From Gaiellales bacterium (GTDB lineage Bacteria; Actinomycetota; Thermoleophilia; Gaiellales; JAICJC01), in the NCBI GenBank assembly GCA_036263035.1, contig DATAHR010000264.1, positions 1-59,774 of the forward strand: a DNA stretch of 59,774 bases, given 5' to 3'. The translations under genes were made by a program, and so were the position numbers. The notes below the pieces were generated by a model. The model was given only the letters and a program-made list of their open reading frames with translations. It did no database searches and was not told the origin of the DNA. Shown in pieces: positions 1,895 to 9,157 of the stretch. The stretch's first letter is position 1. Each line of letters opens with the position of its first letter.

Positions 1895-1939
1895 TTGTCG
1901 GCCTGTACAACGAGCCGCGCGGCACGTACGTTGAGAGGG

Positions 1940-3061
1940 ATGAAGAGGCTCCTTCCGATCGCCCTGCTCTTGGCCGTGATGCTGGCAGGGGCGGCTTCCG
2001 CTGCCGGCGCGTCGGCCGCCCAGCTCCCAACGACGCCCTTCGCGCTGCCGCGCTGGCAGTCACCCGCCATGCCGCCTGCTCTCGCCCAGACCGGCTCCGT
2101 GCCCCAGCCGACCGCCGAGCTGCGGTTCGCGCCGGTGACCGTGAGCGTCAACGACGTGGATTACACGATGCGGATGGACGTCTTCGCCTTCGTTACCCAG
2201 GTCGGATCGTTCACCTTCTTCGACGTGTCGCTGAGCCGCGGGGCCGTGGGATCGGCCGTCCAGTCGCACCTCTACTGGCTGGCGCCGGCGAACCCGATCA
2301 GCTTCCACGTCGCCCGAAGGACGCTCGCCACCGCGACGTTCGATTCCGGCGCCGAGCTCGCGCCTGACGCCTTCGCCGGCTCGTTCACGGCATCCGCCTC
2401 GCAGAAGCGCGTGGCGTGCACGCTCACCAACGGGCGCACCGGGTACCGCAGCAGCGCGCCCGGCACGGTCAGCTGGAGCCGGTTCTCGCTGGACACCGGC
2501 ACGTCCCCGTTCTTCGGCACGCTGGTGAACGGGCCGGCCGACGCCAAGTTGATCTGGGATCCCGGGTGCAAGCAGCGGCGCCACCATCACCGGCGTCACC
2601 TGCCCGCCTGCGGGTTTCGGGACATCCTGTCGGCGCAGGACGCCGCCGGCTCAAACGCGTTCGAGATCGGGCTGAACTACCCCCGTACGCGCACGCTGCA
2701 GGCGGTTGTCAACGCGTTCGACCCGACCGATGTGAAGGCGGTGATCCACTTCTCGGTCGCCGCCGGGCCGGCCGGCGACCTGCCGCCGCCGACCCACTCG
2801 GCGACGGGTGCGACGGCCCATGTCGTGACGACCGGGTCACCGTTCCTGACCGGGTCGTCGACCTTCACGTCATCGCACGCGCCGAGGGTGTCGCTCGTCC
2901 ACCGATGCCGCGCGCAGGGCAGCGTCCACCACTACCGCAGCCTCCGCTACCGCGGCGGGCTGGCTCCCGACCCGACGCCGCTGACGGCGCCGTTCGACAC
3001 GGGCGATCTCGCGGTTCCGGCGATGCCGGCGGTGCTCGTGGTGCGGCGTTATCTGGACTAG
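1940..3061 (+). CDS. Secreted hypothetical protein (signal peptide, His/Arg-rich linker)
   Basis: MKRLLPIALLLAVMLAGAASAAGASA signal-like N-terminus preceded by GAGAGGG. High GC3 coding pattern. No recognisable catalytic motif. Internal RRHHHRRH stretch. Confidence 0.6.
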   Translation: MKRLLPIALLLAVMLAGAASAAGASAAQLPTTPFALPRWQSPAMPPALAQTGSVPQPTAELRFAPVTVSVNDVDYTMRMDVFAFVTQVGSFTFFDVSLSRGAVGSAVQSHLYWLAPANPISFHVARRTLATATFDSGAELAPDAFAGSFTASASQKRVACTLTNGRTGYRSSAPGTVSWSRFSLDTGTSPFFGTLVNGPADAKLIWDPGCKQRRHHHRRHLPACGFRDILSAQDAAGSNAFEIGLNYPRTRTLQAVVNAFDPTDVKAVIHFSVAAGPAGDLPPPTHSATGATAHVVTTGSPFLTGSSTFTSSHAPRVSLVHRCRAQGSVHHYRSLRYRGGLAPDPTPLTAPFDTGDLAVPAMPAVLVVRRYLD

Positions 3062-3064
3062 CCG

Positions 3065-3472
3065 CTAGCCGCGCTCGGCCGCGCGGATCGCCTCGATCAG
3101 CTCGTCCAGCCCGACGCCCTTCTTCAGGCAGCTGGCCGCGCCGGCGGCGAGCGCCGCCTCGATCATCTGCGGCTCGTCGTAGGCGGAGAGCACGACCACC
3201 GGCATGGCCCATGGCGCGTGTGCGATCTGCTCGGTGGCCTCGATGCCGTCGACGTTTGGCATGCGCATGTCCATCACCACCACGTCGGGCGTCGACTGCT
3301 CCGCCAGGGTGACGGCCTCGGCACCGTCGCTCGCCTCCGCGACGACCGTCATCCCCGCTTCGGCGAGTGCGTCGCGAAGGACCCCGCGGAGCAGGGCATT
3401 GTCCTCCGCGATGAGGATCCGTATCGACTCCGCCACTTGGGCCAAAAGCCTACGCGTTTGCCCGGCGGGCAC
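3065..3472 (-). CDS. Stand-alone CheY-like response regulator receiver domain
   Basis: IRILIAEDN...DVVVMDMRMPNVDG...VVVLSAY...CLKKG, so the acidic pocket, phospho-Asp, Ser/Thr and Lys positions are all present. No output domain. It begins 18 nt downstream of the DHp-PfkB gene. Confidence 0.85.
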   Translation of the reverse strand: MPAGQTRRLLAQVAESIRILIAEDNALLRGVLRDALAEAGMTVVAEASDGAEAVTLAEQSTPDVVVMDMRMPNVDGIEATEQIAHAPWAMPVVVLSAYDEPQMIEAALAAGAASCLKKGVGLDELIEAIRAAERG

Positions 3473-3490
3473 GCAACCGGGGCCGGTCGA

Positions 3491-4456
3491 TCACGCGTCG
3501 TACAGGCGCTGGACGCCCTCCTGTGCGGAGGCCGCCGCGGCCCGTGGATCGAGCCCGCGGGTGCGGCCCAGGCAGTAGAGGGCCGCGAACGAGTCCCCGG
3601 CGCCGGTGGGGTCGGCGAACCGCCGCCCGTTGCCCGGAACAACGTGCTCCTCGCCGTCCACGACCAGGATGCATCCCTGGTCAGCCCGCGTGATCAGCAG
3701 CTCGGGGACGTCCGGACGGCCGGTCGCTCGCGCCTCCTGCTCGTTCAGCTTGAGCGCCGTGACGCCGTCGAGCCGCGCCGGGTCGATCGGCCCCAGCCGC
3801 ACCGGGCCCGGCTCTGATCCCCGGGCAAGTCCCTGGCCGTCCAGGCAGACGGTGATGCCGCCGTCCGCGAACACCCGCAACGTCTCGGCCGGGAAGTCGT
3901 CGGCGGTCTGGCTGCCGAGGAGCACCCAGGCGCATCCGTCGAGCTGCGGCAACAGGTGTCGTGCCGCCTCGGGTGTGAGCGGCTCGGGAATGCTGGCGAT
4001 CTCCTGCTCGGTGCCCTCCGCCGTGTGGCGCAGCCGCGAGACCAGCGTGCCGGTCTCGATCGCCACAGGGCATGCGCCCGCCGCGGCCAGCGCCCGGGCC
4101 GCATAGTGAGGGGTGCCTCCCGGCCGGCGCACCTGGGTTCCGTCTTCGAGCACCACCTCGTCCTGCGCGGCCGGGCCGAGCACGGCCACCCGCTCCCCGG
4201 CCTGCCGCCGGGCCGGGTCCAGCTGCTCGCACAGGCGCCGCAGCTCGGTCGCCCCCTCGGCCGCCAGCTCCTCCAGCCGTGTGAGGCCGAGGCGGGCTCG
4301 CTCGACGTCCCCCTGGTCGAGCGCGTGCCGCGTTCCGTCCGCGACCAGGCGCAGCGCGGTCAGGATCTGCTGCGGGCCGTCGTGGAGCTGCTCGGCGAGC
4401 GCGCGCCGCTCATCCGCCGGCGCAGGCCCGCCGCCGTCGGAACCTCCGGCCGGCAT
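3491..4456 (-). CDS. HisKA_3 (DHp) domain fused to a PfkB/ribokinase-family kinase domain; no HATPase_c, no sensor or TM region
   Basis: N-terminus DERRALAEQLHDGPQQILTALRL...ATELRRLCEQLDP matches the NarX/DesK-type H-box plus second DHp helix. Residues about 88-321 carry the PfkB motifs RRPGGTP (GG), LNEQEA (NxxE) and DPTGAGDSF (catalytic GAGD). The start shares nt 4456 with the stop of the upstream NarL-type regulator. Confidence 0.8.
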   Translation of the reverse strand: MPAGGSDGGGPAPADERRALAEQLHDGPQQILTALRLVADGTRHALDQGDVERARLGLTRLEELAAEGATELRRLCEQLDPARRQAGERVAVLGPAAQDEVVLEDGTQVRRPGGTPHYAARALAAAGACPVAIETGTLVSRLRHTAEGTEQEIASIPEPLTPEAARHLLPQLDGCAWVLLGSQTADDFPAETLRVFADGGITVCLDGQGLARGSEPGPVRLGPIDPARLDGVTALKLNEQEARATGRPDVPELLITRADQGCILVVDGEEHVVPGNGRRFADPTGAGDSFAALYCLGRTRGLDPRAAAASAQEGVQRLYDA

Positions 4457-5124
4457 CAGTCGATCAGGGCGTAGCGCAGCGCCAGCGCCACGGCCTGCGT
4501 CCGGGTGTCGGCCTCGAGCTTGGTCATGGCGTTGCGCACGTGCGTGCGCACGGTCTCGGGGCTGATGTACAGCCGCGAGGCGATCTCCGGGTTGGAGTAG
4601 CCGTTTGCCAGCAGCCCCAGGATCTCCCGCTCGCGCGTCGACAGCGCCGGCAGCCGCTCTGTCGCCTTGGGAGACACCAGCTCCGATGCCAGCGTCGGGT
4701 CGACGTACGCACCGCCCTCCGCCACGCGCTTCACCGCGCGGACGATGTCGTCGGGCGGCGCGTCCTTGAGGACGTAGCCGCGCGCCCCGCAGTCGAGGCC
4801 CTCGGCCAGCAGCCCGCGCTCGCCGTGGGCCGTGTACAGGATCACCGCCATGCCGGGATGGGCGGCGGTGATCCGGCGAGTCGCCTCGAAGCCGTCCATG
4901 CCGCGCATGCGCACGTCCATGAGGATCACGTCCGGCCGCCGGCGGTCCGCCATCTCGATCGCCGCGTCGCCGTTCGAGCTCTCGCCGATCACCGCGATCT
5001 CGCGATCGCGTGCCAGGATCATCTTGACCCCCTCTCTGACGGCAGCGTGATCGTCGACGACCAGCACCCGCACCTGCTCGGTCTTTCGCTCGTCGACCGT
5101 CTCAGCGTCCTCGGTGGAGCTCAT
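4456..5124 (-). CDS. NarL/FixJ-family response regulator (REC + LuxR-type HTH)
   Basis: VRVLVVDDH...VILMDVRMRGMDG...ILYTAH...YVLKD receiver, then LSTREREILGLLANGYSNPEIASRLYISPETVRTHVRNAMTKL, a LuxR HTH. Confidence 0.9.
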   Translation of the reverse strand: MSSTEDAETVDERKTEQVRVLVVDDHAAVREGVKMILARDREIAVIGESSNGDAAIEMADRRRPDVILMDVRMRGMDGFEATRRITAAHPGMAVILYTAHGERGLLAEGLDCGARGYVLKDAPPDDIVRAVKRVAEGGAYVDPTLASELVSPKATERLPALSTREREILGLLANGYSNPEIASRLYISPETVRTHVRNAMTKLEADTRTQAVALALRYALID

Positions 5125-5130
5125 GGCCCT

Positions 5131-5161
5131 CCAAATCGTACTGCCGCGGGGGAACGATTGG
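5131..5161. promoter_or_regulatory. Imperfect inverted repeat CCAAATCGT-N14-ACGATTGG in the divergent regulator/CDF intergenic region (candidate operator)
   Basis: Read directly: ccaaatcgt (5131-5139) and acgattgg (5154-5161) are near reverse complements. They sit between starts 5124 (-) and 5188 (+). Confidence 0.3.
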
Positions 5162-5174
5162 AAACACCCTCCCG

Positions 5175-5180
5175 TACAAT
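5175..5180 (+). promoter_or_regulatory. -10-like TACAAT, 7 nt upstream of ATG 5188 (leaderless-type)
   Basis: TACAATcgcgcgcATG. No SD. Confidence 0.4.
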
Positions 5181-5187
5181 CGCGCGC

Positions 5188-6537
5188 ATGTCAACTGCGC
5201 GGCGTACGGCGCTTCTCTCCTTCCTCGCCGCTCTCGGACTGACGGCCGCGAAGCTGGTCGTCGGCCTGGCCACGTCAAGCCTGGGCATCCTGGCCGAGGC
5301 CGCGCACTCAGGGCTGGATGCGGTCGCGGCGCTGCTGTCGCTGTACGCCGTGGGCGTGGCGGAGCGGCCCCCCGACGCGCAGCACCAGTACGGGCATGGC
5401 AAGGCGCAGAACCTGGGCGCACTGACCGAGGCGGTGATCCTTGCGGGGGTGGCCGTCTGGATCGGCGTCGAGGCGGTGCTGCGGCTGCGGTCGGGAGGGG
5501 GCGACGTGCAGGCGCACTGGTACGCCTTCGTGCTGCTCGGCGCGGTGCTCGCGATTGACGCCACCCGCGCGTACCTCTCCTACCGGGTCGGCCGCGCCGA
5601 GCGAAATGCTGCGCTGGTGGCGAGCGCGGTGCACTTCGCGTCGGACTTCGCCGGCACGACCGCGGTGCTGATCGGCCTCACCGCTGTTGCCGCGGGCTAC
5701 CCGCGCGGCGACGCCGTGGCGGCCCTGTGCGTCGCGGTGCTCGTGTTCGTCGCGGCCGTACGGCTCGCGGCGCACAACGTCGACATCCTCATGGATCGGG
5801 CGCCGAGCGGGCTCACCCGCGAGATCGAGCAGGCGGCCCGGGCGGTGCCGGGCGTCACCGAGGTGCGCTCGGTGCGGGTGCGCGAGGCTGCCGGCGAGAG
5901 CTTCGCCGACGTCACCATCGGCGTGTCCCGGCTCGAAGGGCTGGAGCGCAGCCACCAGACCATGGACGAGGTGGAGGAGGCGGTGCGGTCGCGCATCGGC
6001 CCGGCGCAGGTCACGGTGCACGTGGAGCCGAGCGCCGGTGGGGAGGCGCCCAACGAGCGCGTCGCCGCCGCGGCGCTGCGGGTGCCGGGCGTCGTCGAGA
6101 CGCACAACATCACCGTGCTCGATGGCGACGACGGCCGCGCCATCACGCTGCACGTCCGCCTGGACGAGGACATGGCCATGCGCGACGCAGCTCCGGTCGT
6201 GGAGCGGCTGAAGGAGGAGATCCGGTCAGAGTTCGGCGTCGCACGCGTCTACGCGCACGTCGAGCCATCGGCGCTGGGCGCGCAGCCGGCCCGCGACGTC
6301 GCCGGCGAGGAGCCGGACATCGCCGCGACCGCAACCCGCGTCGTCCGCGCGCTGGCCGGCGAGGGAGCGGAGGTGGTGGTCTACCGCCAGGGCGAGCGGC
6401 TGCTGGTCGTCACGTCGCTTCACGCCGACCCGTCGCAGTCCGTGCGCGAGGCGCACAACCTGGCAAGCCGAGTCGAGGACGCCCTGCGCGACGCCCTCGA
6501 CTCGGTCGACGATGTGATCGTCGAGGTGCTTCTCTAG
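5188..6537 (+). CDS. Cation diffusion facilitator (CDF) metal efflux transporter with three tandem cytoplasmic C-terminal domains
   Basis: MSTARRTALLSFLAALGLTAAKLVVG...AEAAHSGLDAV...HQYGHGKAQNLGAL is the CDF TM core. It is followed by three successive PGV-x-E...HVEP-type modules. ATG 5188 is preferred to the track start 4540, which is antisense to the regulator gene. Confidence 0.85.
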   Translation: MSTARRTALLSFLAALGLTAAKLVVGLATSSLGILAEAAHSGLDAVAALLSLYAVGVAERPPDAQHQYGHGKAQNLGALTEAVILAGVAVWIGVEAVLRLRSGGGDVQAHWYAFVLLGAVLAIDATRAYLSYRVGRAERNAALVASAVHFASDFAGTTAVLIGLTAVAAGYPRGDAVAALCVAVLVFVAAVRLAAHNVDILMDRAPSGLTREIEQAARAVPGVTEVRSVRVREAAGESFADVTIGVSRLEGLERSHQTMDEVEEAVRSRIGPAQVTVHVEPSAGGEAPNERVAAAALRVPGVVETHNITVLDGDDGRAITLHVRLDEDMAMRDAAPVVERLKEEIRSEFGVARVYAHVEPSALGAQPARDVAGEEPDIAATATRVVRALAGEGAEVVVYRQGERLLVVTSLHADPSQSVREAHNLASRVEDALRDALDSVDDVIVEVLL

Positions 6538-6543
6538 CCTGGC

Positions 6544-7722
6544 CTAGCGAGCTGCCAGCGTGACCGTGACGGTGGACTGCTTGCCGTCGCGGTAGATGCC
6601 GAGCTGCACCGTATCGCCCGCCTTCTTGGCGGCGATCCCGCCCGACAGGTCGTCGAACGTGTGGATCTGCTTGCCGTCGATGCTCGTGATGATGTCGCCG
6701 CCGAGCGTCATCGTCTGGCCCTGGATCGTGGCCTGGGTGGTGCCGGCCTTCAGCCCGGCCATGGCCGCCGGCGAGCCGGACTCGACCTTGCCGATCAGCA
6801 CGCCGTGGTCGACGCCCAGGTTCAGCGCCTGCGCCAGGTTCGGGGTGATCTCGGACCCGAGGATGCCCAGGTAGGTGTGCTGGGCCTTGCCGCTGGTGAT
6901 GATCTGGTCGGCCACGGTCTTCACCGTGTTGATCGGGACGGCGAAGCCGATGCCGATGCTGCCGCTCTGCGGGTTGTTCGGGTCGTCGGAGAGAATCTGG
7001 CTCGTGATGCCGATCACCTGGCCCTCGTCGTTGATCAGCGGGCCACCCGAGTTGCCGTGGTTGATCGCGGCGTCGGTCTGGATGGCGCCGCGGATCTGGA
7101 CGTTGCCCTGCAGCGACCCGATGTCGCGGTTGACCGCCGAGACGATGCCGGTCGTGGCGGTGCGGGCCTCGCCGAGCGGGTTGCCGATCGCGACAACGGG
7201 ATCGCCCACCTGGACGTCCGACGAGTTGCCGAGCGCCAGCGGCGTCAGCGCCTCGGCCGGCGCGTCCACCTTGAGCACGGCGACGTCGGTGCTCCGGTCG
7301 ATCCCGAGCACCTTCGCGTCGTACGTGCGTGAGGTGGCATCGGCGCCGAACGCGACCTGCACCTTCGAGGCGTTCAGGACGACGTGCGCGTTGGTCAGGA
7401 TGTGGCCGCTCTTATCGATCACGAAGCCCGAGCCGAGCGCCTGCGCCTGCTGCTGCTGCGGGGCACCGAACGGGTCGAACTGGTTGGACGTCGTGGTGGT
7501 CGTCGTGGCCGTGACCACGACCACGCCCGGGGCGTCCTTCCGGTAGATCTGGTTCACCGAGAGTCCCTGCTGCGGCGGCGCCGAAACGGTCGTCGCTGCG
7601 GGGGACGCGGTGCGGATGATGGTGCGGGTGTCTGAGTGAGTCGAGTCGACGGCGTACGCGGTGACGCCGCCGGCGAGCGCTGCCGCTACCACCAGCGCGC
7701 CGGTTCTGAATGAGTTCGTCAT
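6544..7722 (-). CDS. htrA: HtrA/DegP-family serine protease (trypsin-like domain + PDZ), membrane anchored
   Basis: N-terminal TM segment, TNAHVV (His), DVAVLKV (Asp), GNSGGPL (Ser), and a C-terminal PDZ-like GVLIGKVESGSPAAMAGLKAG...GDIITSIDG. Confidence 0.9.
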   Translation of the reverse strand: MTNSFRTGALVVAAALAGGVTAYAVDSTHSDTRTIIRTASPAATTVSAPPQQGLSVNQIYRKDAPGVVVVTATTTTTTSNQFDPFGAPQQQQAQALGSGFVIDKSGHILTNAHVVLNASKVQVAFGADATSRTYDAKVLGIDRSTDVAVLKVDAPAEALTPLALGNSSDVQVGDPVVAIGNPLGEARTATTGIVSAVNRDIGSLQGNVQIRGAIQTDAAINHGNSGGPLINDEGQVIGITSQILSDDPNNPQSGSIGIGFAVPINTVKTVADQIITSGKAQHTYLGILGSEITPNLAQALNLGVDHGVLIGKVESGSPAAMAGLKAGTTQATIQGQTMTLGGDIITSIDGKQIHTFDDLSGGIAAKKAGDTVQLGIYRDGKQSTVTVTLAAR

Positions 7723-7756
7723 GCCTGTCTTCTACGCGCGGCGAATTGGCGCCCGA

Positions 7757-8179
7757 TTACATACTTGGAGACGCATTGGATCCGGCTCTGCGCGTCTGCC
7801 GGCGGGCGATCGCGAACGAGATCAGTCCGATCACGAACAGCGCGGCGATGTGCGACGCGGTCAGGCTGAACCTGTAGAGCGGGTTCGACCCGTCCCGCCA
7901 CAGCCGCGCCATGTCGGCCAGCACGGCAACGGAGCCCACGACAGCCACCGTGTCGGCCAGTGGGGCGCCGGCGCCCGTCTCGAGGTGCAGCGCGAACCGG
8001 CTGGCGATCAGCACGGCGGCGAGCACCACCGCCAGCGCCACGCCGTGGTTGAACGCCAGGTCGCGGCGGGCCGTGAGCCCGTCCGCACGGTTCCACTCGT
8101 ACGCGAGATGCGCGAGCACGACAAGGGCCGCCGGCACGCCCGCGGCGGCGGTGTAGGTGCGCAGGCCGGCTGCCGTCAC
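7757..8179 (-). CDS. Small integral membrane protein (about 4 TM), hypothetical
   Basis: Only the C-terminal 140 codons of track ORF 7757-9025 look like protein (hydrophobic helices VPAALVVLAHLAY..., GVALAVVLAAVLIASRF..., VAVVGSVAVLADMA..., AALFVIGLISFAIA). The rest is antisense to the lipid kinase. GTG at 8179 is in frame. Confidence 0.5.
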   Translation of the reverse strand: MTAAGLRTYTAAAGVPAALVVLAHLAYEWNRADGLTARRDLAFNHGVALAVVLAAVLIASRFALHLETGAGAPLADTVAVVGSVAVLADMARLWRDGSNPLYRFSLTASHIAALFVIGLISFAIARRQTRRAGSNASPSM

Positions 8180-8185
8180 GGTGAC

Positions 8186-8191
8186 TATCGT
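8186..8191 (+). promoter_or_regulatory. -10-like TATCGT, 6 nt upstream of GTG 8198
   Basis: TATCGTagccccGTG. Confidence 0.35.
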
Positions 8192-8197
8192 AGCCCC

Positions 8198-9157
8198 GTG
8201 CGTGTGCGGCTGATCGCCAATCCAAGCGCCTCGCGCGTCGATCCGGCGCTGGTCGAGGGGGTCGCCCGGCGGCTGTCCACCGTCGCGGACGTCGATCTCC
8301 GCCGCACCGAGCGCGCCGGGCACGCGACCGAGCTCGCGGGTGAGCCCGGAGCCGACGTGGTGATCGCCATGGGCGGTGACGGCACGGCCAACGAGATCGT
8401 CAACGGCGTCGACCCGGGCACGGTGGTCGGCGTGATTCCGGCCGGAGCCACCTCGGTGCTCGCGCGGCAGCTGGGCCTCCCGGCGCAGCCGTTGCGCGCG
8501 GCCGCAGTGCTGGCCGCCGCGATCGAGGAACGCCGCTGGCGGCCGCTCGGGCTCGGTTCGCTGAACGGCCGCCTTTTCACCTTCTCGGCCGGGTTCGGCC
8601 TCGAGGCGGAGGCGATGCGGCTGGTCGCCGAGCGCCGGGCCGCCCGCCCCGACCATCGCCGGCCGGGCGACCTCGCCGTGGTCGGCTCGGCCATCTCCGT
8701 CCTGCGTGCGGACGGCTTCGCGCTGCGCGAGCGGATGACCATCCGCGCGGGCGGCGACGACATCCGTGCCGCCTACCTGGCGATCGCCAACGGGCATCCC
8801 TACACCTACTTCGGCCGGATCCCGGTGCGCACCGCGCCGCGAGCGGGCCCCGGCTCCGCGCTGGATGCGGTGGCCGTCGGCAGCCTGCGCCCCACCCAGC
8901 TGTGGCGGCTGGCTGCATACGGGCTGGTCTGGCCGCGGCATGCAGCCGGCCGCGACCGCCACGTCGCCTACCTGCACGACATCGAGGTGCTCGACCTGAG
9001 CGCTGACACCCCGCTCGCCGTGCACGTCGACGGGGAGTACCTGGGGCAGATGGACGCGGCCGAGGTGCGCTACCGGCCGGACGCCGTGCGCGTGCTCATT
9101 GCCCCGGGCGCTGCGGCATCCTTTCCGGCCCCGGAACCGGAAGCGGCAGGTACGTGA
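8198..9157 (+). CDS. Diacylglycerol kinase catalytic-domain family lipid kinase (YegS/DagK-like)
   Basis: VRVRLIANPSAS...VVIAMGGDGTANEIVNG...VGVIPAGATSVLARQLGLP. GTG 8198 is in frame with track ORF 7661-9157, whose N-terminal part is low-complexity shadow. Confidence 0.85.
   Translation: MRVRLIANPSASRVDPALVEGVARRLSTVADVDLRRTERAGHATELAGEPGADVVIAMGGDGTANEIVNGVDPGTVVGVIPAGATSVLARQLGLPAQPLRAAAVLAAAIEERRWRPLGLGSLNGRLFTFSAGFGLEAEAMRLVAERRAARPDHRRPGDLAVVGSAISVLRADGFALRERMTIRAGGDDIRAAYLAIANGHPYTYFGRIPVRTAPRAGPGSALDAVAVGSLRPTQLWRLAAYGLVWPRHAAGRDRHVAYLHDIEVLDLSADTPLAVHVDGEYLGQMDAAEVRYRPDAVRVLIAPGAAASFPAPEPEAAGT

Follow-up and report, generated by a model that had tools for sequence, protein, structure and literature searches.

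The stretch of DNA analyzed here, hereafter the window, comprises 59,774 nucleotides (nt) of contig DATAHR010000264.1 from a soil actinobacterium of the order Gaiellales (assembly GCA_036263035.1). Three consecutive open reading frames (ORFs) of 222, 321, and 135 amino acids (aa) lie on its minus strand, at the coordinates given in a first-pass annotation of the same DNA. The central gene (3491..4456, minus strand) encodes a 321-aa protein in which a HisKA_3-type dimerization and phosphoacceptor (DHp) domain is fused to a PfkB, or ribokinase-fold, kinase domain, as indicated by Pfam and by an AlphaFold2 (AF2) model; the same architecture is found in the orthologs P0001-P0006. It is preceded by a gene for a NarL/LuxR-type response regulator and followed by a gene for a stand-alone receiver.

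The DHp domain, a helical hairpin, spans residues 16 to 82 (4211..4411, minus strand) and is supported by its match to PF07730, the AF2 model, and its ratio of nonsynonymous to synonymous substitution (dN/dS). The Pfam match to HisKA_3 over residues 16 to 82 scored 34.3 bits (cut-off, 24; E value, 3.5e-8) and covered profile positions 1 to 66 of 68. Within it, the H-box H25-D26-G-P-Q-Q30 (4367..4384, minus strand) combines the phospho-acceptor histidine, encoded by the CAC codon at nt 4384-4382, with a DxxxQ phosphatase motif; alignment A1, canonical kinases included, shows no variation at H25, D26, and Q30. The DHp domain of the fusion is homologous to that of the kinases of neighboring lineages. 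A junction of six residues, ARRQAG (residues 83 to 88; 4193..4210, minus strand), leads into a small PfkB domain of the ATP type (residues 89 to 321; 3494..4192, minus strand), assigned from PF00294, profiles of Protein Data Bank (PDB) structures, and Foldseek. The Pfam match to PfkB (37.4 bits; cut-off, 25.8) is confined to residues 251 to 312, spanning the C-terminal ATP-binding part alone. HATPase_c, the ATPase domain of canonical histidine kinases, was absent from the 321-aa protein even at an E value of ≤1. The combination of HisKA_3 and PfkB without HATPase_c had been anticipated by the first-pass annotation and was thus borne out by the Pfam scan. Modeled as a monomer, the fusion protein was predicted with a mean local confidence (pLDDT) of 92.7 and a predicted template-modeling score (pTM) of 0.79, with DHp helices at residues 13 to 47 and 51 to 79, a short linker, and an α/β domain at residues 89 to 320. 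In both alignment A1 and the AF2 model only about 8 residues part the DHp and PfkB domains, so there is no space in the fusion for a catalytic and ATP-binding (CA) domain. The protein also has no sensor and no transmembrane (TM) region. By sequence family assignment it is a member of both the HisKA_3 DHp and the PfkB families; having no HATPase_c domain, it does not qualify as a histidine kinase on the basis of its domains.

Although the Pfam match to PfkB is partial, the domain is complete, judging from profile alignments and the predicted structure. In a PDB profile search, the family profile aligned nearly full-length to a fructokinase, TM0415, and TK2285 (E values from 3e-17 to 2e-13), and a Foldseek search of the PDB with the AF2 model returned ribokinase-family kinases at a probability of 1.0. 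The top matches were 3w4s, the myo-inositol 3-kinase of the archaeon T. kodakarensis, and 5ysp, the pyrophosphate (PPi)-dependent myo-inositol kinase TM0415 of Thermotoga; ribokinases ranked lower. The window's domain carries the motifs GG113-114, D206-x-Q208-G-x-x-R212, N238-E-Q-E241 (NxxE), and G285-A-G-D288 (GAGD). Residues G113, G114, R121, D206, Q208, G209, R212, E241, G285, G287, and D288 are invariant in 80 family members, in line with the earlier statement that the GG, NxxE, and GAGD motifs are intact. In TK2285, inositol is contacted by D12, G26, Q136, R140, and D219 (PMC5931981). In a HMMER alignment these residues correspond to D99, G114, Q208, R212, and D288 of the fusion, all of which are invariant or nearly so; D99, Q208, and R212 are invariant within the fusion clade and are also present in non-signaling paralogs. 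Small-molecule contacts are thus invariant in the fusion clade, and a small-molecule substrate is therefore favored over His25; the domain probably binds such a molecule rather than the histidine. Ribokinase-family kinases that depend on PPi carry an RxGRGD motif, and a small residue at the second position marks the ATP type (PMC5931981). The window's domain has PTGAGD, not RxGRGD, and a PPi-dependent kinase of the TM0415 type was ruled out by the missing motif. Collectively, these residues give the domain the appearance of an active kinase that uses ATP to phosphorylate a small hydroxylated compound.

The gene context of more distant relatives provided a further view of the substrate. Paralogs of about 265 aa that are not linked to signaling (in L021, L026, L029, and L036, at about 4500-8200 in each) lie directly 3' of a gene for an NCS1 permease (PF02133). 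A convergent PhzF-like gene stands beside these PfkB paralogs; in L021 and L036, the scan covered the permease only. In L025, the PhzF-like gene is present and an α/β-hydrolase gene lies upstream in place of the permease. A PhzF gene also abuts the signaling-linked PfkB gene on its 3' side in L005 and L006. This neighborhood suggests a substrate class other than inositol, and inositol as the definite substrate was set aside, since the gene context of the paralogs conflicts with it. The permease and PhzF context likewise hints at a duplication origin of the signaling-linked PfkB copy. One more distant PfkB relative, P0208 (520 aa), seems by eye to contain an additional HAD-like hydrolase region with a DxGGTLD-type motif; if this reading holds, it would be a kinase-phosphatase fusion.

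The fusion recurs well beyond the window. Proteins P0001-P0006, which are 82 to 99% identical, derive from JGI, ENA, and NCBI assemblies; five diverged fusion orthologs with 82 to 91% identity come from separate samples and independent assemblies, Illumina included, and P0004 was found on 15 contigs from several samples. In all fetched orthologous loci (L001-L004 and L088-L091), the order regulator, fusion, receiver is retained, so the conserved neighborhood of flanking regulators that the first-pass annotation had looked to is indeed present. The regulator stop and the fusion ATG overlap as TGATG at nt 4456, confirming an earlier observation, and this 1-nt overlap is kept in the orthologs. 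The lengths of the ortholog linkers vary, always by multiples of three. An assembly or frameshift artefact, a concern raised in the first-pass annotation, was ruled out by recurrence in independent assemblies and by these frame-keeping linker indels. Among the five fusion orthologs, dN/dS (Nei-Gojobori) was 0.13 to 0.38 for the DHp domain, 0.11 to 0.17 for the PfkB domain, and about 1 for the unstructured N-terminal tail. By this measure the DHp domain is under purifying selection, and the earlier suggestion that the protein is not a decayed remnant is upheld by the low values in both domains and by the invariant H-box. As far as sequence comparison can establish, the 321-aa fusion is genuine and selectively maintained. 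An exhaustive HMMER scan of 1.84 billion representatives yielded one full-length fusion cluster and one distant in-frame fusion, P0159, and the fusion has been found so far solely in uncultured Gaiellales (Thermoleophilia, Actinomycetota).

The Gaiellales homologs include about a hundred stand-alone PfkB-like proteins with a length of roughly 237 aa. A survey of gene surroundings covered 80 genome loci together with the other contigs analyzed. All surveyed loci with a PfkB of about 42% identity or more to that of the window contain a cassette encoding a NarL regulator, a HisKA_3 protein, PfkB, and a receiver. Among the loci surveyed for the distant ~265-aa paralogs, none has the cassette, with the exception of L059, in which a short PfkB fragment has an adjacent receiver. 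The cassettes fall into three groups. In the first, the distant relatives L007, L013, L015, and L017-L019, a complete TM-DHp-CA kinase gene is followed by a PfkB gene that overlaps its stop. These kinases are 279 to 282 aa long, with a hydrophobic, presumably membrane-spanning N terminus. The kinase of L007 matches HATPase_c with 30.5 bits and has N, G1, and G2 boxes, and the others in this group match the CA region of L007. L018 and L019 encode PfkB as a separate protein, and L007, L013, L015, and L017 encode it fused to the receiver. In the second group (L005, L006, and L009-L012), a soluble HisKA_3 protein of 213 to 217 aa has a stop codon overlapping the start of a separate gene for a PfkB of 237 to 238 aa. 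The Pfam scan covered L005 and L006 of this group and found no HATPase_c match in either at an E value of ≤10; both have lost the G2 box and carry another residue in place of the N-box Asn. L009-L011 resemble the degenerate CA region of L005, and L012 is closer to the CA region of L007. Between diverged lineages of the second group, the CA region has a dN/dS ratio (ω) of 0.4 to 1.16 and the adjacent DHp domain one of 0.17 to 0.56; by these ratios, the CA region is decayed and evolving near neutrality. The third group is the clade of the window, in which there is no CA region and the DHp domain is joined directly to PfkB.

Relative to the sister loci, about 110 to 120 codons of the CA or pseudo-CA region are missing from the fusion in alignment A1, exactly between the C terminus of the DHp domain and the start of PfkB, and a neighbor-joining tree nests the fusion clade among pseudo-CA lineages. 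At the level of these comparisons, alignment and tree show that the fusion arose when an already inactive CA region was deleted from a small kinase gene lying directly upstream of a PfkB gene. The first-pass annotation had proposed that PfkB was swapped in as a replacement ATP-binding module. This proposal is not supported by the comparison: in the more distant relatives PfkB already adjoins a complete kinase gene, an arrangement that the first-pass annotation had itself counted as evidence against its reading, and the CA domain had decayed in the sister lineages before the lineage of the window deleted it. A second, independent loss is seen in the other subclade, where L014 has an 80-aa ORF for a DHp domain alone (5754-5987) that overlaps the start of the PfkB gene (about 5977-6771) by about 11 nt, and where P0159, a relative of L014, is an in-frame DHp::PfkB fusion with a frame-shifted C terminus. 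The CA domain was therefore lost at least twice and is dispensable. Two apparent full-length TM-DHp-CA::PfkB fusions, in L070 (519 aa; 5158-6717) and P0142, were set aside; compensating frameshifts in the CA region, together with their origin in metagenome-assembled genomes (MAGs), make sequencing error likely.

Receiver fusions form a further link between PfkB and signaling. They occur in L007 (8001-9194), L013, L015, and L017 and in the proteins P0086, P0087, and P0117, always with the receiver at the C terminus of PfkB, and this receiver closely resembles the stand-alone receiver of the window (198 to 204 bits). In L007, a GGDEF gene follows the PfkB::receiver gene. PfkB is thus tied to signaling proteins in three ways, by stop/start overlap, by receiver fusion, and by DHp fusion.

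The two regulators that bracket the fusion retain their phospho-acceptor residues. The NarL/LuxR-type response regulator (222 aa; 4456..5124, minus strand) is the first gene of the operon and consists of a receiver and a GerE helix-turn-helix domain according to Pfam (Response_reg, 99.5 bits; GerE, 69.9 bits). Its best NCBIfam matches are of the MadR, MctR, and NarL types, each below its cut-off, and it scores 385 to 459 bits at every cassette locus. The stand-alone CheY-like receiver (3065..3472, minus strand; Pfam Response_reg, 105.7 bits) begins with a GTG at nt 3472, 18 nt from the fusion stop. It is up to 135 aa long; its start is uncertain because gene callers give orthologous receivers lengths of 123 to 154 aa. 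In alignment A4 with Escherichia coli CheY, residues E23, D24, D68, S96, and K118 of the receiver correspond to CheY D12, D13, D57, T87, and K109. Both proteins keep the acidic pair, the phospho-acceptor Asp, the Thr/Ser, and the Lys of CheY (DD, D, T, and K in the regulator). The earlier description of a receiver 18 nt downstream with all phospho-acceptor residues was therefore accurate, apart from the uncertainty over its start.

Upstream of the operon, a divergent intergenic region of 63 nt (5125..5187) separates the regulator gene from a cation-efflux gene of the cation-diffusion-facilitator (CDF) type (5188-6537, plus strand). In alignment A5, this region is highly conserved, far above synonymous sites, even in comparison with loci whose coding dS is at least 0.7. 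By eye, it contains TACAAT and TACGAT boxes resembling -10 elements, back to back and very near both start codons; a consensus scan found no full sigma-70 promoter or intrinsic terminator in 2900-5400. The region probably holds back-to-back promoters, and the positions of the boxes suggest overlapping divergent promoters that are possibly near-leaderless. The CDF gene, which may be a target of the regulator, is followed by a gene for an HtrA-like protease (6544-7722, minus strand), and both neighbors are kept in the annotated cassette loci. On the other side of the operon, an ORF of 388 aa (1895-3061, plus strand) lies between the receiver gene and a peptidase-C26/GATase gene. Its product has a hydrophobic N terminus resembling a signal peptide by eye and a HHHRRH stretch. 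ORFs with no Pfam match on record occupy the same position in L089 and L090 (373 aa) and in L006 (371 aa), and the ORF is a variable insertion, given its absence from L001-L004 and L091. Positions 1-1894 of the window and 9384-14222 of L001 resemble a gamma-glutamyl-polyamine (Puu-like) gene set, with peptidase C26/GATase, a glutamine-synthetase-like protein, and an aldehyde dehydrogenase. The Puu-like genes of L001-L004 are followed by one for a canonical HisKA_3-HATPase_c kinase of 424 aa.

With its CA domain gone, the DHp domain of the fusion is unable to autophosphorylate by the canonical route. Our analysis points, at about even confidence, to a dimeric phosphotransfer and/or phosphatase hub centered on His25, situated between the two regulators and coupled to a metabolite kinase. 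In such a hub, the single-domain receiver and the NarL-type regulator would exchange phosphoryl groups by way of His25. The precedent is provided by Spo0B, ChpT, and PhyT, degenerate kinases through which phosphate passes from a single-domain receiver on to a regulator (PMC5898713). In addition or instead, the DHp domain may dephosphorylate both regulators through its DxxxQ motif, which is needed for the phosphatase activity of the NarX transmitter (PMC3510030). The phosphoryl groups would be supplied by a kinase encoded elsewhere, and the PfkB domain, in the position of the CA domain, would couple the hub to the metabolite that this domain binds or turns over. The ligand state of PfkB could gate access to the DHp domain or, as the PfkB::receiver fusions of the sister lineages suggest, a phosphorylated receiver docked on the DHp domain could control the PfkB enzyme. 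Of the two functions proposed in the first-pass annotation, a metabolite-binding PfkB domain coupled to DHp phosphotransfer or phosphatase activity remains the best-supported reading, although one that we infer.

Several points weigh against this hub. Phosphotransfer, phosphatase activity, and coupling to PfkB are all inferred steps, and PfkB could be either the input or the output of the coupling. Searches of the 59.8-kb window (phmmer, with DHp, CA, and receiver queries) found no donor kinase. A canonical HisKA_3-HATPase_c kinase lies nearby only in the L001-type ortholog and not in other cassette loci; in L001, this 424-aa kinase is four genes from the cassette, and the equivalent position falls beyond the left edge of the window. 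The leads to the substrate diverge, with structure pointing to inositol and the paralogs outside two-component systems adjoining an NCS1 permease of the nucleobase/vitamin type and a PhzF-like gene. Furthermore, the dN/dS values are approximate, as they were obtained from high-GC genes with dS of 0.4 to 0.8.

The same genes could be organized with PfkB at the end of the pathway, an arrangement we regard as possible though on the unlikely side. PfkB would then be a metabolite kinase switched by the phosphorylated receiver, and the DHp domain would serve only for dimerization and docking or act purely as a DxxxQ phosphatase, with His25 never phosphorylated. The covalent fusion of PfkB to a receiver in the sister lineages, reminiscent of a response regulator with an enzymatic output, is in keeping with this arrangement, as are the presence in those lineages of a complete kinase that could phosphorylate both regulators, the invariant catalytic residues of PfkB, and the retention of DxxxQ. 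However, docking alone would need no histidine, and His25 never varies across the CA-less and pseudo-CA lineages. Moreover, the NarL regulator is co-transcribed and strongly conserved, so the DHp domain probably still acts on it.

Another explanation takes PfkB itself as the phosphodonor. It would phosphorylate His25 from ATP, directly or after being loaded with a metabolite, and would thereby give two-component pathways their first histidine kinase outside the GHKL type. The short linker puts PfkB exactly in the place of the CA domain, PTGAGD in place of RxGRGD assigns the domain to the ATP type, both losses of the CA domain occurred with PfkB adjacent or fused, and no other kinase is encoded in the window. 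Nevertheless, PfkB already stands beside an intact-CA kinase in relatives and so was not recruited as a replacement, and in the sister lineages a pseudo-CA region is kept between the DHp domain and PfkB, which there is a separate polypeptide. The contacts D99, Q208, and R212, invariant in the fusion clade, are common to paralogs with no signaling role, and we know of no ribokinase-fold enzyme that phosphorylates a protein histidine. We therefore consider direct phosphorylation of His25 by PfkB, the other function put forward in the first-pass annotation, very improbable; the coexistence of PfkB with an intact CA domain and the conservation of small-molecule contacts both disfavor it. It is extremely improbable that the DHp domain is a decaying leader in front of an ordinary PfkB gene, perhaps translated from an internal GTG near residue 90, or that the fusion is an assembly or frameshift artefact. 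On the side of such readings, the fusion did arise through the deletion of a decayed domain, an internal GTG with a preceding GGGGAG is seen by eye at the junction, and some apparent fusions from MAGs (L070 and P0142) do contain frameshifts. In contrast, the fusion occurs in at least five diverged lineages, in independent short-read and other assemblies, with the frame kept through linker indels; dN/dS is 0.13 to 0.38 in the DHp domain versus about 1 in the tail, the H-box is invariant, and the stop of the regulator gene keeps its 1-nt overlap with the fusion start.

Two-component systems are normally viewed as a GHKL kinase and a regulator. In this clade, a ribokinase-fold metabolite kinase is an obligate and physically linked member of the pathway, as shown by its gene overlapping the kinase stop, by its fusion to the receiver in some lineages, and by its fusion to the DHp domain in others. 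The architecture suggests an unstudied way of wiring metabolism to signaling. If the hub between the two regulators exists, it would be a natural His-phosphotransfer protein gated by, or gating, an enzyme, linking metabolite turnover directly to phosphorelay flux and offering a compact design for synthetic metabolite-responsive relays. If PfkB were instead the kinase of His25, it would represent a new class of histidine kinase, and the repeated loss of the CA domain would be explained by its redundancy with PfkB. The cassettes also provide a graded natural series, from intact through decayed to deleted CA domains, for studying the conversion of a kinase into a phosphotransferase.

Literature searches for HisKA_3 with PfkB, and for PfkB with a receiver or histidine kinase, found no description of this architecture or of the PfkB::receiver fusion, in agreement with the earlier statement that no characterized example is known. 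In databases the fusion bears nothing but automatically assigned names, for example "pfkB family carbohydrate kinase/histidine kinase." The closest parallels in known systems are ChpT of Caulobacter crescentus, Spo0B of Bacillus subtilis, and PhyT of Sphingomonas melonis, which are kinase-derived and have a DHp domain with a phosphorylatable His but are unable to use ATP, and which pass phosphate to a DNA-binding or output regulator (PMC5898713; see also PMC3433190). Judged from its sequence features, the fusion has the traits of this class, namely, a DHp domain with a conserved His, no functional HATPase-type domain, and two receiver partners, and the gene layout of receiver, DHp protein, and regulator, with its order conserved in orthologs, fits the same relay logic. 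It differs in that those proteins keep a pseudo-CA α/β domain, while here an unrelated, apparently active small-molecule kinase stands in its place; its DHp domain is of the HisKA_3 type, and no homology is claimed beyond that domain. With kinases of the NarX, DesK, and LiaS type, the fusion shares a homologous DHp domain (PF07730), the H-D-x-x-x-Q motif, and a NarL/LuxR-type partner regulator, but it is without their sensor, TM, and HATPase_c regions. The best fold matches for the PfkB domain, the myo-inositol 3-kinase TK2285 (3w4s/4xf7) and TM0415 (5ysp/1vk4), are similarly small, and the ligand contacts of TK2285 are kept. However, their identity to the PfkB domain of the fusion is only 16 to 18%, the donor site of TM0415 is of the PPi type and that of the fusion is of the ATP type, and neither enzyme is linked to two-component signaling. 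Finally, the PfkB::receiver proteins of the sister lineages resemble CheB and PleD, response regulators with enzymatic output, in pairing a receiver with an enzyme. Unlike these, they carry the receiver at the C terminus and have a PfkB kinase as the enzyme. The window departs further from the CheB and PleD pattern, with a receiver that stands alone and an enzyme joined to the DHp domain instead.

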